A stretch of 64,000 nucleotides of DNA. Origin: Scenedesmus sp. PABB004 (taxonomy: Eukaryota). The DNA is taken from the NCBI GenBank assembly GCA_014905635.1, contig CM026547.1, positions 3,162,001 to 3,226,000 on the forward strand, read 5' to 3'. Each line of letters opens with the position of its first letter. Position 1 is the first letter of the stretch. The notes beneath the pieces were generated by a model. It had not been told where the DNA came from. It ran no database searches and was given only the letters and a program-made list of their open reading frames with translations. The position numbers and the translations under genes were made by a program. Shown piece after piece: positions 13,682 through 23,100 of this stretch.

Positions 13682-14280
13682 ATGGAGCCAGCGGCGGTGG
13701 CCGACAGCGAAGGCCTGCAGCAGGAGGAGCGGCGCCGCGTGTTCCGCAGCCGCGCCGGCTGCCTGCTGCGCGCGGCGAGCGCCGGGTCGAGCGACGACGG
13801 CAGCGCCACCGAGCCCCCGCCGTACTGGCGGCGCCGCGCATCGCTGGCCGGCGGCCGCATGTCGCTCGACGCGCACGCGGCGCGGCTGCGCGAGCGCCAC
13901 CAGGTGCAGACAGAGCTGCGCGCCTGGGTCGACGACGTGCTGGCGCACTCGCGCGGCGAGGCCGGGGCCGGACGCGAGGGCGAGGCCGGACGCGGCGGCG
14001 ACGCCGGTCGGTGGAGCGACCTGCCGGCGGAGCTGCACGGCGCGCTGACCGGCCGGGCGCCGCTGAGCCCCGTCGCCAGCGCGGCGCACCTGGGCGACCG
14101 CCGCGACGCGCACCGGTGCCACCACCGCCACCACCGCCACCGCCACGGCGCGCGCCCAGAGCGCCAGCGCCGCTCTGCCCGCGAGCTCGAGGCGGCCGCC
14201 GGCGGCACGGCGCAGTCTCCGTTTGCCGCGCCGAGCCTGCAGGCGCCGGCGCCGGGCAGCCGCGCGGCCAGCAGCGCAGA

Positions 14281-14311
<31 letters not shown>

Positions 14312-15937
14312 CTGCTCCTCACGCCGCGCACGGCCGAGGGCTGTGAGGCTGTGCTGCGCGCCCAGGTGGAGGTTGAGGTGCAGCAGCGGGTCGCGTTGCA
14401 GTGGCAGGCAGCGCGCCAGGTGGACCAGGCGGCGCTGTCGCAGCTGCGCGAGGAGCAGCAGCGGCTGACGCGGCAGCTGGCAGAAGCACAGCAGCAGCTG
14501 GCGGCGCTGGCAGCGCGGCCTCAGCGCGGCACGCAGAGCGCGGCGCCGCCGCCGGGCAAGCCCAGCGGCGAGCAGCGCGGCGGTGGCGACGTGTGCGACC
14601 CTGGCGCTCGCCAGCGCGAGGTGCTGGCCCGGCCCAGCTCTGGCGTGCAGGTGCTCACAATCCTCCGGCAGAGCAGCGGCAGCGTCGACGGGGCGCCAGC
14701 ATGCCAGGGTGCGGCAGGGCCAGGCGCAGAAGCGCCGCCCCGGCCGCTGCAGGAGTTGGTCGCCCCAGGCCCGCCGCCGCAGCGACGGCGGGGCGCCAGC
14801 GGTGCGGCGCCTGCCGCCAAGGCCCCCGAGCGTGGAGCAGGTCGCAGCGCGGAAGGTGTCGCTGCGACGACCGGCGGTGCCGCCTCGGCGCGACGCCGCA
14901 CGAGCGCGGCGCGTGCAGCTGCCGCTGCGGCCTTTGGCGGCGGCAAGGCGGCGAACGCGCCCTCGACGGCGCGGCGGCGGCGCATGGCGGGCTCGGCGCC
15001 CGCGCAGGGCGCAGATGCTGCGCAGCAGACGCCGGCTGCGCTGGCGGAGCGGCTGCAGCACGCCGAGGCCGGCCTGCGGGCTGCGCTCGCAGCGCAGCAC
15101 GCGCTGGAGGCTCAGCTGCGAGACTGCCAGGGCCAGCTGGCGGACGCGCGCGCGCAGCTGCAGGCCGAGGGGCAGCAGGCGCAGCGCGCCGGGGCGCTGG
15201 CCGCGCAGGTGGCGGCGCTGCAGGAGCAGCTCGCCGCAGCCGGCGCGGCGCAGGCGCAGCTGCAGCGAGAGCGCGGCCAGCTGCTGGCGCGGCAGCAGGA
15301 GCTGGACGCACAGCTGTCGCTCGAGCGGCGGCAGCGGCCGGAGCCGGCCAGCGAGCCTGCCGGCGGCGGTGCGGCGGACGGCTGCGCGTCCGTGCGGCGC
15401 CCGTGTGGGCGGTGCAGGGAGCTGGAGCAGCAGCTGGCCACCTCTCGCTCCATGGAGCTAGACGTGGCGGCGGCCTGCCAGGCGCCGGCGCCCTCCGCGC
15501 CCGGACGGCTGAGCCGGCCGCTGAGCGTGTGGCCGCCCCCGCAGCCGCCCGCGGCAGCGGAGCCCGTCGGCGCACCATGTAGCAGGCCCGCGCCGGCGTG
15601 CGGCGGCTGCGAGGCGGCAGCCGACGCGGCCGCTGCCTGCGCGCGCTTGCGGCCGCTTAGCTACCGGCCGCCGCGGTCGGCGGTGGCCGGGTCGGTCACG
15701 GGCACGGCGGTCGACGGCGGCGGGCCCGCTGGCTGCAGCTCGCCGCTCTCGTGCGCCCCGCTGCGGCTGGCGGCGCGCAGCGCCAGCCCCCGCACCGCCC
15801 GGGGCGCGCGCACGCCGCGCCCCGGGACGGCCGCGCCGGCGTGCGGCTGGCTGGGCGGCGCCGGCAGCCCGCGGCGGCCGGTGACGACGGGGATCCCGGC
15901 GGGCGTGCCGCGGCTCGAGCTCGGCCTTTTACGTTGA
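13682..15937 (+). CDS. Uncharacterised low-complexity coiled-coil protein (751 aa ORF)
   Basis: Long ATG-initiated ORF with host-like codon use and two Q/E/L/A-rich heptad regions; head-to-head with the phosphoesterase gene. Confidence 0.65.
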
Positions 15938-16175
15938 GAGCGCGCGCGCCGTGACAAGGGCTGGGCGTTGAACCGCAGCCGCGATCCCGACTGCTCCAGC
16001 GCGGCGCCCCGACCACGACGGAGCTGTTCGGCGCACGCAGACCCGCCGCCGCCAGCGGCGGGCCGCAGCGGCCGTCCGCCGCGCGCAGCTGTCGACCGCC
16101 GCGAAACGGGCGCAAGCCAGCGCCGTCCGCTGCAGCGCGCTGCCGGCTCCCTGGAGCTGCACGCGAGGCCACACG

Positions 16176-16204
16176 ATGCTGCGGAGCGGCGCACTGGCGG
16201 CGCT

Positions 16205-16237
<33 letters not shown>

Positions 16238-18551
16238 CGAGCCCGCCCGCCGCCGCGGGGGCGCGATGACGCGCCGGTGCCTGGCTCAGGCCTCACCGGC
16301 CGCTGCACCGGTCGCTGCCCTGGCGCCGGCGCCCGACGGCGTGCCGCCACGGCGCAACCTCAAGACGATGCTCCTCACCTGTCCCGCCGGCGCGCTCGTC
16401 GTCCTGGCGGCGGGCGACCGCCGCGTTGACCTGGGTGCCGTGGCCGCGCACCTGGGCGTGCCGCGGCGCCACGTGCGCCTCGCGAGCGCGGCCGAGGCAC
16501 TGGCGGCGACGGGCTTTGAGGTCGGCGCGATACCGCCATTTGGCCACGCTGCGCGGCTGCGCACGCTGGTCGACGCGAGCGTCGCGTCGCCGCCGCCGCC
16601 GGCGCCGCCGTCCTTCTTCGCCGGCAGCGGCGTCGCGGGCATGGTGCAGGAGCTGACCGCGCAGCAGCTGCTGGCAGCGGTGCAGCCGTGCGCGGTGGGC
16701 GACTTTAGCGTCGATGCGGCCGCGGCGCCGCCCGGCGCCGGGGGCGCCCAGCAGCCGCAGGCGCAGCCACAGCAGCCGCGCGACGCGGTGCCGCCGGGCG
16801 CCTGGGCGGCGCGGTTGCCGCTGCCCTGGCCGCCCGGCAGCAGCGAGGTCGCGCTCGTTGGTGTCGTCGCGCAGCGCCGCAGGCTCGCCAAGTTGCTGCT
16901 GTTCGTGAGCCTGGTGCCTGAGGGCGTGCCGCCGCTGCCCGCCGACGGCGCGGCCGTGCACGTGCGCCGGCTGTGGCGGCACCCCGGCGCGGCGCCCGCC
17001 GCGGCGTGCGAGGTGCAGGTTATCTGCGGCAAGACCATCGAGCGCGCCCTGGTGCGTGCGCGCTGCGCCCTGCGCAGCGTGCCGGCCGCAGTCGCGCCGG
17101 CGCTGCGCCGGCGCCGCCGCCCGTGCGCCGCCGTGCGCGCGCCGACGCCGCCGCCTGTGCGCGCCGCGCCGCAGGGCCGCGAGGCGGCCGCGGCGCTGCT
17201 GGATCAGGTCAAGGTCGGCTGCGTGCTGTCCGTGCGAGGCCGCGTCCAGCAAAACCCCGCGGCGGCCAGGGCGGCGGACGACAGCCGACCTCAGGCTGGC
17301 GCGGAGCAGCACTACGTGCTGGACGTGGTTGCGAGCGAGGTCGCCGTGCTGCACAAGAGCCGCGACACGCTGGCGCGAGCGCTGCGCGCCGCGCAGCGCC
17401 GGGGCGCCACGGGCGTCGCGACCGCCACGCAGCTGCTGCAGCTGCAGCAGCCGGCGGGCGGCGCCAGCAGCGACGGCAGCGCGGCGCGCGCGCCTGCACG
17501 CAAGCTGCCGAGCAGGGACGCCGGACCAGGAGCCGCAGCGCAGGCAGTGGGCGCGGCGCCGGCGCCTGCGCCTGCGCCGCGCAGCACAGCGCCTGTGCCC
17601 AGCGGCAGCACCGCGCGGGAGGCCGGGGAGTGCTGGCGCCTGCCGCTGGCGCCGGAGTGCGTGATCTGGGTTGCGGACCTCGCCGGGCTGCAGCTCATGC
17701 GCGCGGCGGTGCTTCCGCACGCCGCCAGCGGCAGCGGCAGCGGTGCGGCGGCGCACGTCGTGGGCATGGACTGTGAGTGGCGGCCCTTTGACCGCGGCCA
17801 GGCGCCGACGCCGGTGGCGCTGCTGCAGGTCGCCACGCGGACTCAGGCCTTCCTCGTCGACCTGTTGGCGATCTGCCACGGCGGCGGGGGCTGCTCGCTG
17901 GCCGAGGCAGCGCTGAGTGACCTGCTTCTGCAGCTGCTCTGCCGGCCGGACGTGGTCAAGGTGGGCTGGGGCCTCGCCGGGGACCTGGCGCGCCTGCAGG
18001 TGCGGCGGCGGCGCCGCGTGCGCGCGCCCAGGCAGGGGCGTGCGCCGACGCGGCGGGCCTGCGTCCCCCCGGCCAGCCCAACGCCCGACGCCGCTCCTGC
18101 CCGCCCGCCGCGCGCGCAGGCATCGTACCCCGCGCTGCCCTGCTGGCAGCCGGGCGCGGCGGCGGCCGTCTCGGGCGCCGCGCCGCCGTCGCCCCGCAGC
18201 GGCGCGGCGCCGCTGGCGGGCCACGTGGACCTGCAGCAGCTCGCGCGCCACGTGCTGCCGCCGGAAACCCGGCATGCGGCCGCCAGCCTGAGCCTCAGCA
18301 AGCTGGCGACCGCGGTGCTGGGCGCGGCGCTCGACAAGGGCCCGCAGCGCAGCGCCTGGGACATCCGGCCGCTGAGTGAGGAGCAGCTGCTTTACGCGGC
18401 GAACGACGCCCACGCGCTGACGGTGCTGCACGACTCGCTCGTCGCGCGCCTGCCGGCGCCGCGGGACGCCGTCGCGCTGCTCGCGGCGCGCCGCGGCGAG
18501 GAGTGGCTGCCAGTGACTGGCACGCGGCGCGAGGGCGGCGAGGCGGCGTGA
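16176..18551 (+). CDS. YbaK/aminoacyl-tRNA deacylase-like domain + OB fold + DEDDy 3'-5' exonuclease (MUT-7/WRN-like) fusion
   Basis: NLKT...GDRRVDL...RLAS...TGFEVGAIPPFGH (YbaK); VALVGVV..RR..KLLLF...QV...KVG..LSVRG (OB); GMDCEW, ALLQVAT, FLVDL, QRSAW..RPLSEEQLLYAANDA (exonuclease). Introns at about 17053-17174 and 18000-18119. Confidence 0.85.
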
Positions 18552-18651
18552 GCGCAGCGGCGGGACGACAGCGGCGGCTGCGCGCGCGTGGCTGTGACGG
18601 ACCGACGTTTTGCACCCGGGCGGCGATCACGCCGCGCGCCACGCGCCGCGC

Positions 18652-19360
18652 TCAGGGCTTGGCCACCACCGTGACCGCCAGCTTGGCGAGGCTCGGCCCC
18701 GCGAGCTCCAGCGTCCAGCCGCGCCCCGGCAGCTGCACCTCGAACGCGGCGCCCTTGAGCGGCACTGTGCTCGGCCGGCCCTCCGGCCCCACCAGCACCA
18801 GGGCGTTGGCCGTCGCGCGCGCCACGATGCCGGCGCGGCCGACGTAGATGGGGTTGGCCGCGCGCGTCACGCGCGCGACAGCGCCGTGCCAGTCCAGGCC
18901 CGGCAGGAGGCGCGCGAGCGCGTCGTCGCCCTTGCCCGCCGCGACGCCGCCGACGTAGCGCCCCCACGCCTCGTGCAGCGGCAGCAGCGCCGCGTGGTCG
19001 AGCGCGGCGGGCAGGCGCGCGAGCTCGCCGCGCCGGCCGCGCGGGAGCAGCCCGCCCGCGAGCCGCGGCCGCCGCGCGCGCGCCGCGCCGCTCGGCCGCG
19101 TGAGCGCGAGCCGCGTCGCCGGGTTGTCCAGCACCACGCTCTTGTCGATCGTGCGCGCCGCGATCGTGCTCGCCGCGACGTGCGGCGGCATGTGGGGCGC
19201 CATGAGCGCGCCCAGCACGTCGGCCACGTCGCCGCGGCACGCGCCCGGCGGCGGCAGCCCCAGCGCCGCGACCGCGGCGGCGCCGCCCGCGTCGGGCAGG
19301 ACCGCGTGCAGCGGCGCGTAGGGGAACGCGCCGCGCTGCGCCGCGTCGCACGCGCCGGCG

Positions 19361-19393
<33 letters not shown>

Positions 19394-19703
19394 GGCGCCG
19401 GCACCGGCGACGGCCGCCGCGCCGCCGGCGCAGCAGCGGGCTGCTGCTGGCCCGGCGCCGCGGCCGCCGGCTGCCGCCGCCGTCCGCTGGGCGGCGGCTG
19501 CGCGGCGGCAGGCTGCTTGCGCGCCGTCACGGGCTGCCGCTGCGCCGCTGGCTGCGCCGCCGCCGCTGCCGGCGCGGCGTACGCGCCGAGCGCCGCGAGC
19601 CTGCGCGTGCGTGCAGCGGCGTGAGCTGGCTGTGCGCGCGCGTCGGACGCCGTGAAGGCGCGCCGGGCACCCACCGGCGCTTCTTGGTGCTCGACGGCTC
19701 CAT
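18652..19703 (-). CDS. POP4: RNase P/MRP subunit POP4/RPP29
   Basis: LLPLHEAWGRYV...LDWHGAVARVTRAANPIYVGRAGIV..TANAL...TVPLKGAAFEV. The start (MEPSSTKKRR) is inferred. Confidence 0.8.
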
Positions 19704-20163
19704 CGGCAGCGGCGGCAGCGCCAGGCGGCAGCGGCGGCGGCGGCGGCGCCCTGGGCTGCGCCGAGTCAGAGCCGCTTGTCCGTGGCGGTCTCCAGGCGGC
19801 GTGGGGCGGGCGGGCGGGCTCCCTCCCGCCCGGCCGGGGCGCAAGGGCTCGGCACTCGAACCAGCTGCGGGCGCCTGCAACTGCCGCCGCGCCGCCCCGC
19901 GCACGCGCTCGTCCCGCTCCATCCCCGCTTGCCGCGCGCGCTCATCGCAGCGCGTCCCGGGGCGCGCGGCGCGCGCGCACCGGCGCCGAGGCCGGCGCCG
20001 CGCCCCCTGGCCCGCGTCGCGCCCTGGCCACCGCGTACACGGCCACGCGAGCTCGGCCTACGGCCATGCGGTCCGGCGCGGCGCCCGGGGCGCCCTGAGC
20101 GCGCGGGCGGCCGAGGTCGTTGCAGTGAAGGAGGCCGCGCCCGCGAGCGGGAGAGCGCCCGGG

Positions 20164-23100
20164 ATGCTGGAGACGCGGCACATGCAGCTGCTGCACGCCG
20201 GCAGGTGCGCTGCGGTCCGGCCGCCGGCCACGCGGCGCGCGCTGCTGCCGCTGCCGGTGCAGCCGGCGCCGCTGGTGCCGCCGGTGCCCGCCGCCCGCCG
20301 ACGCCGCGCCCGTCCGCCCCACCCGCAGTTTCAGCTCCGTGTACTCCGCGGGCGAGGCGGAGGGGCACGGCGCGGCGGGGAAGGTGGTCAAGGCGTACCA
20401 CCGAGCGCCGCTGCAGTCGCGGCACTGGCTCAACATCTCCCGCGAGGTGGCCATCCTCACGCGCCTCAAGCAGCTGGGGTGCGCCGCCCGCGGGCCCGCC
20501 AGCGGCGGCGGCGCAGCGGCGGCGGGCCGGCTGCGCGCGCGCGCGCCAGCGTCCAAACCCACAGCGCGCGCGCGCGCGCCCCCCGCAGCGTGCCGGGCGT
20601 GGTGGAGCTGTGCGGCACGTGGGACGACGCGGCGGCGCTGTACCTCGTGTTTGAGCCCTGCCCCGGCGGCGACCTGTACAAGCGCCTCGCGCACGCGGGG
20701 CTGCTCAGCGAGGCGCAGCTCTGCCGCGAGGCGCGGCGCCGCCCCGCGCGCGCGCGCCCGCGCGCGCGCCCGCGCGCCGCCGTGCCGCGCCGCCGCACGC
20801 GCGCAGCCGCTGACGCCCCCCCCCCCCTCCCCTCCCATTGCTGGCCCGCCAGGTCATCGTCCCGCTGCTGCGCGTGCTGTCGCGCCTGCACAGCCTGGGC
20901 GTCGTGCACCGCGACGTCAAGCCCGAGAACATCTTCTTTGATGCGTCTGGGCGCCTCGTGCTCGGCGACTTTGGGCTCGCGATCTGCCGCGCCACCGACC
21001 GCCCCGTGAGCCGCGTGGGCACGCTGGACTACATGGCGCCAGAGGTGCGGCGCGCCCGAGAGAGGGGGTGTTTTCGGGGGGGGGGGGTGCTTGGCGCGCG
21101 CTCGCGCGCGCACTTGGCGTGTGCTCATGCACCGCACGCACACACACGCGCGCACCGCATCCGCGTGCAGGTGCTCGCGCAGCCGTGCGCCGACGTCGTG
21201 GCGCTGCGGCGGCTGCGCCCGGGGCAGCTGCCGTGCTACGACGCCAAGGTCGACGTGTGGGCGCTGGGCGTGCTGGTCTATGAGGCGCTCATGGGCATCA
21301 CGCCCTTTGGGCACCCAGACCCAGAGACCGCCAGCCTGCAGGCCCAGTTCCGGCGCCCCGCGCCGCTGCGCCCCGGCGTGTCGGCGGCGTGCGCCGACTT
21401 TGTCGGCCGCGCGCTCACCAAGCAGGCGGCCGCGCGGCCGTCGGCGGCGCAGCTGCTCGCGCACCCCTGGGTGCAGGCGCACATGACCGCGGACGACGCC
21501 GCCGAGTGCCGCGCCGCGACGGCAGCCTGGTGCGCGCGCGGCGCCGCATGCGCGCGCGCGCTGCGCCGCGCACGGCTCCGCCGCGCCGCGCCACGCCGGC
21601 GCCGCGCGCCGCGCGCGGCGCCCGCCTCACGCACGCGCGCCGCGCCGCGCCCCGCGCCGCGTGCCGCGCCGACGCCGGCGGCGCCGGTGCGATCGGGCGG
21701 CTCACCTCATGCCCGCCCATCTCTGCCGCGACGTCGCCGCGCGACGCGCCGGGCGGCGCGCCGCGCGGGCCGTCGCCGCCGGCGGGCCTCGAGCCCGCCA
21801 CGCCGGCGGCGGCGGGGCACGAGCGCTTTGTGAGCCTGTCGCACCACCTGCAGCAGAGCCTGGCGCCGCCGAGCGTGGCGGCAGAGGCGGCGGAGCTGCT
21901 GCGCCAGCAGCAGGCTGCCGCGGCGGCGGCGGCGGCGCAGCGCCCCTGGCAGCGCCTGGTGCAGCAGCACCGCCAGCAGCACCCGGGGCGGCCGCCGGCG
22001 GGCGCGGGCGCCTGCCCCGGCGGCGGCGCCCCGCCCTGCCCGCAAGCCTGCGGCGCCTCGCCGTGCGCGCCGGGGCCGGGCCACCACAGCCTGCTGGGCC
22101 GCTCCTGCTCCGCCCTGCTGGACAGCCACCACGCGCTGCTGGACAGCGCGCGCATGGCGTCGGCGGTGACGGGCGACGCGGCGGGGCGGCGGCGCTGCGG
22201 GCAGCAGCACGCACGCGGCGCGCAGGGCGCCGCCGCGCTGCTGGGCGGCTCCGCGAGCGCGCCGGCGCCCGGCGCGCTGTGCAGCTCGGTGCCGGCCTCG
22301 CCCGTCACCGACCGCGCCAACCCCGCGCTGTGGCTGCTGTCGCCGCAGCAGCCCGCGCGGCAGTACGCCGGCGGCGGCGCGCGGCAGCCGGCCATCCTGG
22401 CCGCGCTGTACTCACCGGCCCCGCTGCTGTCTGCGGCGCAGACGCCGCGGCGCCCGGTGCCCGGCGCGCACGCGCTGGCGGCCAGCCCCGGGCAGGCCCC
22501 GGTGCCGGTGCTGCTCGTGGCGCCGCGCGCCGACTGGCAGCCGCTGGCGGTGGCGGCCGGAAGCCCGCTCGTGTCGTCGTTCTGCGCGCCCGGCGTGCAG
22601 CTGGTCAGCCCCTGCCGCGGCGCGGCGCCCGCGCCTGGCGGCAGCCCGGGCCAGCCGCCGCGCTGCGCGCTGGTGCGGCACGCGAGCGCCGGCCTGCTGC
22701 CGATGCGGCAGCAGCCGGGCTGGCCCGCCCCCGGCGGCGGCGGCCGGCAGCCCGCCGGCGTCGTGGCGCGCAGCCTGCTGCAGGACAAGCAGTGGCTGCT
22801 GCGCCCCTCGCGCCAGCCGGGCGCGTCGGGCAGCACCGCGGCGGACAGCGGCTGCACCGCCCCGCTCGGCTGCACGCCCAGCAGCAGTCTGGGCGGCGAC
22901 GAGGGCAGCGGCAGCGCCTGCGGCGGCAGCAGCTGCGGCAGCCCGCGCTCCTGCAGCACCTGCAGCAGCGACCTCGCGGGCGCCGCGCTGCTGGCGCACG
23001 ACTGCTGCGTGTCGCTGGCGGTCGCGCCGCACGCGAGCGCCGACGCAGCGGCGGCGGCGGCGCACGGCGCCAAGGGCGGCGCGGCGGGGCTTGTGGGCGC

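Follow-up and report, generated by a model that had tools for sequence, protein, structure and literature searches.

We analysed a stretch of 64,000 nucleotides from the alga Scenedesmus sp. PABB004 (GenBank assembly GCA_014905635.1, contig CM026547.1, positions 3,162,001 to 3,226,000 of the forward strand; hereafter the window, in whose own numbering all positions are given) and within it a gene at 16176..18551 whose product joins a YbaK/ProX-type aminoacyl-tRNA editing domain, an OB fold and a DEDDy 3′-5′ exonuclease. The gene is nuclear, belongs to a chlorophycean alga with very GC-rich DNA and has a product of about 710 amino acids. We tentatively favour the reading that the product, as judged from its sequence, would be a tRNA-selective 'decharge and trim' enzyme serving tRNA quality control, inactivation or turnover. 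The features of the gene are listed below, with residues numbered along the unspliced open reading frame (ORF).

16176..18551, forward strand: gene body, an open frame of 791 codons plus stop, from the ORF list
16176-17051, 17175-17999 and 18120-18551, forward strand: three coding exons, 710 amino acids when spliced
17052..17174, forward strand: intron 1, in frame, 123 nucleotides, GTGCGT..CAG, located in the OB domain, within the helical part that connects strands b3 and b4
18000..18119, forward strand: intron 2, in frame, 120 nucleotides, GTGCGG..CAG, directly past the ExoII motif
16176..16316, forward strand: N-terminal 47 residues, poly-Q and Arg/Ala-rich, modelled as one long helix with a predicted local distance difference test score (pLDDT) of 65-83; start codon uncertain
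16317..16715, forward strand: YbaK/ProX-type aminoacyl-tRNA editing domain, residues ~48-180, from PF04073, PDB sequence search and Foldseek
16362-16364, forward strand: YbaK residue K63 in NLKT, from the sequence
16512-16547, forward strand: GxxxP loop GFEVGAIPPFGH, residues 113-124, from the sequence
16803..17450, forward strand: OB fold of the type by which class IIb synthetases bind the anticodon, residues ~210-395 with a helical tail to ~425, from the model, fold searches and hhalign
16878-16880, forward strand: OB residue R235, invariant (48/48 in alignment A2, 46/46 in alignment A4)
16902-16904, forward strand: OB residue F243, invariant (48/48 in A2, 46/46 in A4)
17016-17018, forward strand: OB residue Q281, invariant (48/48 in A2, 46/46 in A4)
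17322-17324, forward strand: OB residue D383 (48/48 in A2, 45/46 in A4)
17628..18485, forward strand: DEDDy 3′-5′ exonuclease domain, residues ~485-770, split by intron 2, from PF01612, Foldseek and residue counts
17769-17771 and 17775-17777, forward strand: ExoI (DCE) residues D532 and E534, from the sequence
17982-17984, forward strand: ExoII (GDL) residue D603, from the sequence
18393-18395 and 18405-18407, forward strand: ExoIII (YAAND) residues Y740 and D744, from the sequence

The G+C content of the window lies at about 69-85% (0.785 over 16001-18000 and about 79% near the gene), and 39 ORFs of at least 80 amino acids, spread over all six frames, overlap 14000-21000. Because stop codons are rare at about 79% G+C and long ORFs occur everywhere, the length of an ORF is by itself uninformative; it is from the domain matches and the homologues that the gene at 16176..18551 is recognised as real. 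A tblastn search gave as its main match residues 97-851 of P0001 (P numbers designate collected proteins) against 16284-18518 (E 9.6e-150), the remaining matches being mostly low-complexity. Several other ORFs overlap the gene, including an antisense ORF of 712 amino acids at 16293-18431 on the reverse strand and several of 170-270 amino acids in other frames, and these are by-products of the high G+C content and not genes.

The preliminary description of this DNA had taken 16176..18551 as an uninterrupted coding frame. This did not hold: 81 of the codons are intron-encoded and the protein has 710 and not 791 amino acids. When the window ORF is aligned with its homologues two segments stand out as private insertions, both edged by canonical splice sites, with an occupancy of 0.001 and 0.0 across the remaining 45 sequences of A4 (the full-length alignment, 46 sequences) against 0.82-1.0 in the flanks, and both segments overlap stretches of pLDDT <50 in the full-length model (residues 306-321 and 610-647). 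The spliced translation (16176-17051 + 17175-17999 + 18120-18548) is identical to the C-terminal 710 residues of P0004, named 'EXD3 [Scenedesmus sp. PABB004]' at its source. P0004 is longer (1488 amino acids), adding 778 residues upstream of the window protein by way of a predicted intron at 15881-16039, and this extension takes in 733 residues of the upstream ORF at 13682-15880. Orthologues from Tetradesmus (872 amino acids), Raphidocelis (817) and Chlamydomonas incerta (712) have no such N-terminal extension, for which reason the deposited P0004 model looks, from this comparison, over-merged on its 5′ side. The first ATG past the stop of the upstream ORF is that at 16176.

An apparent fusion in such DNA could be an artefact, adjacent separate genes being read as one where stops are rare, and both the long ORFs in all six frames and the seemingly over-merged 5′ side of P0004 are of the kind this would produce. 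Between the domains, however, there is no stop codon and no frame shift, the sole interruptions being the two canonical in-frame introns, while the three-domain order recurs in 67 of 152 relatives from distant lineages and is transcript-derived in two of them, P0046 and P0173. We regard an artefact as extremely improbable.

The N-terminal domain matches Pfam family PF04073 (tRNA_edit) over residues 55-140 (E 8.9e-18, 65 bits against a cut-off of 25.5) and, in a sequence search of the PDB, ProX of Thermus thermophilus (2cx5, E 9e-7). In the full-length model its pLDDT is 90-97, and Foldseek with this model returned ProX again (2cx5/2z0k, E ~6e-10, TMt 0.79-0.81, root mean square deviation 1.9-2.6 over ~160 columns) together with 1dbu, 2dxa and 1wdv. 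Fold and motifs are those of the ProX/YbaK trans-editing deacylases (TTHA1699 'ProX', 2cx5/2z0k; Aeropyrum APE2540, 1wdv), the xxKxL Lys and the GxxxP loop included. YbaK-family proteins work on the aminoacyl-CCA end, and we take the conserved Lys to be catalytic and the GxxxP loop to be a substrate loop throughout the superfamily. Both motifs from which the domain had first been named, K63 in NLKT and the GFEVGAIPPFGH loop, are present, K63 aligning with the Lys of IVKSLVF in 2cx5. Within A4 the Lys position holds K in 37 of 46 sequences, Asn in 7 and a gap in 2, the loop glycine is kept in 43/46 and the prolines in 45/46; the same Lys column of a wider alignment of 95 YbaK sequences holds K in 66, N in 17, E in one and a gap in 11. 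Members of the Asn subgroup, with the motif INS[LI]VF, include P0063, P0072, P0075, P0081, P0101, P0105, P0116, P0123, P0139, P0141, P0142 and P0146 among others. Going by this substitution the deacylase of these proteins may be altered or inactive, and because of the subgroup deacylation is perhaps dispensable in some members.

The NCBIfam equivalog for YbaK/EbsC (TIGR00011) scores 38.3 bits on the window protein and does not reach its cut-off of 153.25; a score this far under an equivalog cut-off means that amino-acid and tRNA specificity are not transferable from YbaK/EbsC. For the family member P0092 the PDB sequence ranking was 1wdv (9.7e-12), 2cx5 (2.9e-10) and E. coli YbaK (4.5e-3), with no ProXp-ala structure among its matches at E ≤ 0.01. 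A search for an upstream exon that would encode the usual YbaK N-terminal helix found nothing convincing in the three forward frames of 15400-16176; despite this, the domain in the full-length model spans nearly the entire ProX structure. Known ProX/YbaK proteins are free-standing (~150-160 amino acids) or are insertions in ProRS, whereas the window protein carries it in one chain with an OB fold and an exonuclease.

For the middle domain we built an alignment (A2) of 48 sequences, the spliced segment of the window protein and 47 homologues of it. Ten of 63 segments had been set aside earlier (the duplicate P0004, the overlong P0002 and eight that were truncated or badly aligned), and A2 took 47 of the 53 remaining candidates, six being omitted for length alone. 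AlphaFold2 on A2 gave a model of pLDDT 85 and predicted template modelling score (pTM) 0.76 with strands at 19-33, 36-42 and 72-79, helices at 81-98 and strands at 104-112 and 134-147, that is, the order b1-b2-b3-helix-b4-b5. This is the strand order of the class IIb synthetase OB domain (AspRS/AsnRS/LysRS, PF01336), which also supplies the best structural matches. Foldseek with the OB model returned 108 PDB matches at E ≤ 0.001, headed by LysRS (6aqg, 9.8e-5), AspRS and AsnRS. A VIA-align comparison with 48,161 chains gave 13 chains with a Z score of at least 8 and, among the 50 matches listed, all were OB folds; at the top stood AsnRS 2xti (Z 9.3, root mean square deviation 3.1, 91 residues aligned), human AsnRS (9.1) and the OB fold of PolC (8.9), with LysRS and AspRS at Z ~7.1-8.1. 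As matches no more than 1 Z unit apart are ties in this comparison, the fold alone supports the term 'OB' and not 'anticodon-binding'.

Several features set the domain apart from its synthetase counterparts. The OB fold of class IIb synthetases is followed by a synthetase catalytic domain, which is absent here; the b2-b3 loop is long and variable, with ~28 residues more than in E. coli AspRS; and a conserved helical tail follows the fold. At the level of sequence profiles one family member, P0095, scores just enough for PF01336 (27.2 bits for a cut-off of 27), and P0189 (24 bits) and P0188 (19.7 bits) fall short of it. PF01336 also includes DNA-binding OB folds such as that of PolC. The A2 profile gave nine matches among PDB sequences, all at E ≥ 0.23, and the four matches of the P0095 OB segment in the same kind of search were all irrelevant. 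A single-stranded DNA-binding domain (SSB, PF00436, E 6.4e-15) in Monoraphidium P0189 was considered as its middle OB fold and rejected, as it forms a separate C-terminal domain at residues 837-931 that may come from a merged neighbouring gene.

What bears on the ligand of the OB fold is the set of residues it keeps. Six columns of A2 are invariant in all 48 sequences (R30, L36, F38, Q76, G80 and D137), four of which are R235, F243, Q281 and D383 in ORF numbering, and we compared them with an alignment (A3) of three E. coli synthetases, aspS, asnS and lysS. With hhalign, A2 aligned to the N-terminus of AspRS alone at E 0.012 and to A3 with a probability of 61% and E 7.9e-5; both alignments match R235 to R28 of E. 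coli AspRS, F243 to F35 and D383 to E93. A pairwise alignment in which gap extension costs little places Q281 opposite Q46 (VQV on VQV), as does hhalign once the variable b2-b3 loop columns are removed (probability 49%, E 1.7e-4). The E. coli residues R28, F35, Q46 and E93 are presumably themselves in contact with the anticodon. Four of the six invariant OB residues thus sit, by alignment, on the class IIb readout positions for anticodon bases 35 and 36, which strengthens the earlier designation of the fold as 'anticodon-type'. In human LysRS, F144 is described as stacking with U35 and U36 while R136, Q155 and E195 stabilise the stack (PMC11643047), and a preprint on T. thermophilus AspRS names Phe33, Gln44 and Glu76 as the core anticodon-readout residues (10.64898/2026.05.03.722492). 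The spacing from Arg to Phe is 8 both here and in human LysRS. This residue match is the strongest single argument that the substrate would be a tRNA, with U at position 35, and going by the aligned residues we consider tRNA the probable substrate, with some reserve.

A different reading of the OB fold would make the protein a DNA-directed 3′-5′ exonuclease of the WRN/EXD2 kind with a single-stranded-DNA-binding OB domain, its YbaK domain having been taken up for some other task, hydrolytic or binding. In favour of this, both fold and sequence searches return the WRN exonuclease and EXD2, the OB folds of PolC, MCM, SSB and PriB lie no more than about 1 Z unit from those of the synthetases, and SSBs account for 8 of the 9 weak PDB matches of the OB profile (E 0.23-1.4, not significant). 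The invariant Arg, Phe, Gln and Asp, however, fit synthetase anticodon readout, an RNA enzyme heads the structural matches of the exonuclease domain, and we know of no member of the YbaK superfamily that acts on DNA. We hold a DNA-directed role to be very unlikely.

The C-terminal domain matches PF01612 (DNA_pol_A_exo1; E 1.2e-16, 61.5 bits against a cut-off of 23.6), and its catalytic set is intact, as first described, with D532, E534, D603, Y740 and D744 all in place. Across A4 the ExoI D and E and the ExoII D are kept in 46/46 sequences each and the ExoIII Y and D in 43/46, with two gaps and one other residue. Its best match by PDB sequence is Nibbler, a 'mut-7 homolog' (7jw2, 1.3e-6), and the Nibbler EXO domains 7jw2/7jw6 also come first in Foldseek with the full-length model (E 1.5e-10, TMt 0.76-0.78), the order after ProX continuing with the WRN exonuclease (8.6e-9), Haemophilus influenzae YbaK, E. 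coli 2dxa, RRP6, APE2540, EXD2 and RNase D. The MUT-7/EXD3/Nibbler group thus provides the best structural match, and in both the DEDDy set is complete; neither MUT-7 nor Nibbler contains a YbaK or OB module, and the window protein, which ends 21 residues past the modelled exonuclease domain with a convergent gene following, gave no Pfam match to the Mut7-C domain (PF01927). Because WRN, RRP6, EXD2 and RNase D trail Nibbler closely in the fold ranking, orthology with MUT-7 is not established. The bacterial tRNA 3′-end exoribonuclease RNase D has a DEDDy domain of the same Pfam family, and a tRNA 3′ end is the plausible substrate here too; its structure 1yt3 is among the fold matches and the sequence matches (P0092), and its equivalog TIGR01388 matches the ExoIII region of the window protein at E 1.4e-10. 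Membership of RNase D was nevertheless rejected, as that match scores 41 bits against a cut-off of 298.95 and Pfam finds no HRDC domain in the window ORF at E ≤ 1; with an equivalog match so far under its cut-off the function of RNase D is not transferable either.

The three-domain architecture is widespread. A profile from a further alignment (A1) searched against 1.84 billion representative proteins returned 7909 proteins at E ≤ 1e-3, 120 of them at E ≤ 1e-30, the weaker matches being presumably mostly single-domain relatives. To type domain order we ran three small hidden Markov models (HMMs), made from A1 blocks of three sequences each, on 152 collected relatives at E ≤ 1e-3. YbaK, OB and exonuclease occur together in 67 of these, OB with exonuclease in 25, YbaK with OB in 16, exonuclease alone in 27, exonuclease followed by YbaK in 8, OB alone in 5 and YbaK with exonuclease in 4, many of the partial forms being fragments. 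A Pfam scan covering 52 of the 79 two- or three-domain proteins found PF04073 in all 52 and PF01612 in 49. Named members are Tetradesmus obliquus, Raphidocelis subcapitata, Monoraphidium minutum, Gonium pectorale, Pleodorina starrii and Chlamydomonas incerta, with Parachlorella kessleri and Pedinophyceae sp. as further members, and outside the chlorophytes Euglena gracilis, Chromera velia, Symbiodinium ('mut-7' at source) and Effrenium voratum; the true range of the family is wider than these. Two three-domain members derive from transcripts, Euglena EG_transcript_3851 (P0046) and the MMETSP protein P0173, which is marked complete.

YbaK and MUT-7-type exonucleases are moreover joined in two different orders. 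Five of the eight proteins with exonuclease before YbaK have the order exo-YbaK-Mut7-C (P0093 of Chlorokybus, P0111 of Cymbomonas, P0131, P0135 and P0147), and in these the OB domain HMM found no match at E ≤ 1e-3. They also have a long N-terminal region. Among the 52 scanned YbaK-OB-exo relatives Mut7-C occurs once, at the C-terminus of P0068 from Chromera. Ankyrin repeats are present in 7 of 52 and 2 of 17 relatives scanned (P0057, P0062, P0065, P0084, P0091, P0112, P0117, P0127 and P0132), lying either between the YbaK and OB domains or at the protein end. Many relatives carry an extra conserved region past the exonuclease (A4 consensus; P0003; residues 696-786 of P0079, with a weak match to DUF3427 at E 5e-5, under the cut-off), and this region is missing from the window and Tetradesmus proteins. 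A match of P0186 from Chlamydomonas eustigma to P0170 from Gonium was dropped, as it falls outside the three domains, and a search of the ESM Atlas gave no usable match.

The likeness to Nibbler raises the alternative that the family trims the 3′ ends of small RNAs or acts in RNA silencing in the manner of MUT-7, Nibbler and EXD3. The exonuclease would then be the working part, directed at siRNA- or miRNA-like RNAs, with YbaK and OB as accessory modules that bind RNA ends and single strands and have ceased to handle aminoacyl-tRNA. It draws on the Nibbler EXO domain being the best match by both fold and sequence, on the labels 'EXD3' and 'mut-7' that relatives carry at source, on the Mut7-C domain, typical of MUT-7, in Chromera P0068 and in the exo-YbaK relatives, and on the change of the YbaK Lys to Asn in part of the family. 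Most members nonetheless retain the GxxxP loop and the Lys, the OB domain keeps synthetase anticodon-readout residues for which generic single-strand binding gives no need, and the closeness of WRN, RRP6, EXD2 and RNase D to Nibbler leaves MUT-7 orthology not established. We judge a small-RNA trimmer unlikely.

A further alternative stays with tRNA and would make the protein an enzyme of tRNA 3′-end maturation or repair, possibly organellar, in which the RNase D-like domain trims 3′ trailers or damaged CCA ends and an OB-anchored YbaK domain is mainly a sensor of CCA or charge, or an ordinary trans-editing factor, with no obligatory coupling to the exonuclease. Its domains are identical to those of the decharge-and-trim enzyme and it can point to RNase D among both sequence and fold matches; the lack of HRDC and the low RNase D equivalog score count against it, and it gives no reason for keeping a deacylase whose catalytic Lys is intact. 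Orthologue N-termini were compared for a possible organellar location by a crude count of acidic and basic residues, not a predictor, over 15 proteins, with a mixed picture. The first 40 residues contain no acidic residue in Tetradesmus, Pleodorina and Pedinophyceae, and the Euglena and Chromera proteins begin with hydrophobic signal-like stretches; such presequence-like N-termini favour an organellar enzyme, and the Gonium, Symbiodinium and Effrenium models, which have no presequence, speak against it. A maturation or repair enzyme of this sort seems to us improbable.

We return to the decharge-and-trim reading, which rests on three modules with tRNA precedent, for the CCA end, the anticodon loop and 3′ trimming, staying joined with their key residues kept across distant lineages. 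An aminoacylated 3′ end shields a tRNA from 3′ exonucleases. In the mechanism we propose, the OB domain would dock on the anticodon loop of tRNAs with U35 through its retained Arg, Phe, Gln and acidic residues, the YbaK domain on its flexible linker would hydrolyse the aminoacyl ester at the CCA end, and the exonuclease would then trim the CCA end or degrade the tRNA from the exposed 3′ end. Taken from the sequence, the full succession of deacylation followed by 3′ trimming is a possibility we hold tentatively, a shade more so than the general role. A stronger form, an anticodon-directed 'decharge-and-destroy' enzyme in which reading of U35 selects the tRNAs, YbaK discharges them and the exonuclease removes the CCA end or the whole tRNA, is more doubtful.

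The full-length model (791 residues, from A4) has a mean pLDDT of 77.2 and a pTM of 0.52, with three confident domains at residues ~48-180, ~210-425 and ~485-770 (pLDDT ~85-98) and low-confidence linkers at residues 184-204 and 430-483 between them. With that pTM and disordered linkers, the relative placement of the domains is not predicted. The long disordered linkers could bridge the ~70 Å from anticodon to acceptor end.

A number of observations weigh against a decharge-and-trim enzyme. Nothing in the full-length model brings the two active sites close together. Of the 84 family sequences with a residue at the position of the catalytic Lys, 17 have Asn instead. DNA-binding OB folds come close to a tie with those of the synthetases (PolC at Z 8.9, MCM N-domains at ~8.2-8.5, SSB and PriB in Foldseek), the window OB segment is not significant for PF01336 (E 0.14 for its second half), and Pfam on the whole ORF at E ≤ 1 finds no third family; of the three domains expected from the preliminary description tRNA_edit and DNA_pol_A_exo1 were both recovered above their cut-offs, while the OB domain is identified by model in the window protein and by Pfam in P0095. 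The hhalign probabilities of 61% and 49% are moderate, the pairing of Q281 with Q46 requires the long loop to be gapped or removed, and the fourth readout position is Asp here and Glu in the class IIb synthetases. Finally, the known substrates of MUT-7 and Nibbler, the closest solved exonucleases, are small silencing RNAs and not tRNAs.

Upstream of the gene lies an ORF of 751 amino acids on the forward strand (13682-15937), coiled-coil-like and of low complexity, in which Pfam found no family. Downstream and convergent, at 18652-19674 on the reverse strand, an ORF carries the domain of the RNase P/MRP subunit p29 (POP4; PF01868, E 4.3e-10, residues 260-328), a second tRNA-processing gene, separated by ~100 bp from the 3′ end of the fusion; such adjacency is probably coincidental in a eukaryote. 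A Ser/Thr protein kinase gene follows on the forward strand at 20838-21833, with ORFs from ~20339 (Pkinase, E 1.6e-30, in two stretches), and is evidently broken up by introns.

The preliminary description knew of no characterised protein with this architecture. Literature searches, which left most subscription journals outside their coverage, found no functional study of YbaK-OB-exo proteins, and to that extent the statement stands; the co-occurrence of YbaK and a Mut7-type exonuclease is already in print for oomycetes, where one descriptive sentence of Matelska et al. 2017 (PMC5499597) records Mut7 proteins with an aminoacyl-tRNA editing domain and gives no function. According to that sentence the oomycete proteins hold an editing domain and a PF01612 exonuclease in one protein, as here, and the exo-YbaK-Mut7-C proteins of Chlorokybus, Cymbomonas and three others are of the same kind, differing in order and content from YbaK-OB-exo. 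Within the searches made, it is the YbaK-OB-exo order, the synthetase-type readout residues of its OB fold and its function that are not on record. The YbaK protein of the plant multisynthetase complex is unrelated to the YbaK-OB-exo fusion. The other domain claims hold, three domains being encoded by one gene, with PF04073 and PF01612 above their cut-offs, the OB fold seen by model and their order kept in 67 of 152 relatives, and the search for the architecture among representative proteins located it in chlorophytes, Euglena, Chromera and dinoflagellates.

To our knowledge all clearance of wrongly charged tRNA ends with deacylation, and the tRNA decay routes known to us target uncharged or hypomodified tRNA. 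If the reading proposed here is true, an anticodon reader, a deacylase and a 3′ exonuclease in one polypeptide would amount to a novel principle of tRNA quality control or regulation, in which a tRNA is picked by its anticodon, uncharged and then disabled by one enzyme, and algae and many protists could in this way shut down or clear specific charged tRNAs. The family is spread over chlorophytes, Euglena, Chromera and dinoflagellates, the related order occurring in streptophytes and prasinophytes among the algae and reportedly also in oomycetes, and the orthologue in Chlamydomonas incerta suggests that the Chlamydomonas model could serve for testing. The finding also bears on the unexplained biology of the MUT-7/EXD3 exonucleases: because YbaK and MUT-7-type exonucleases have been joined in two orders, this exonuclease lineage may have aminoacylated RNA 3′ ends as an ancestral substrate that has gone unnoticed.

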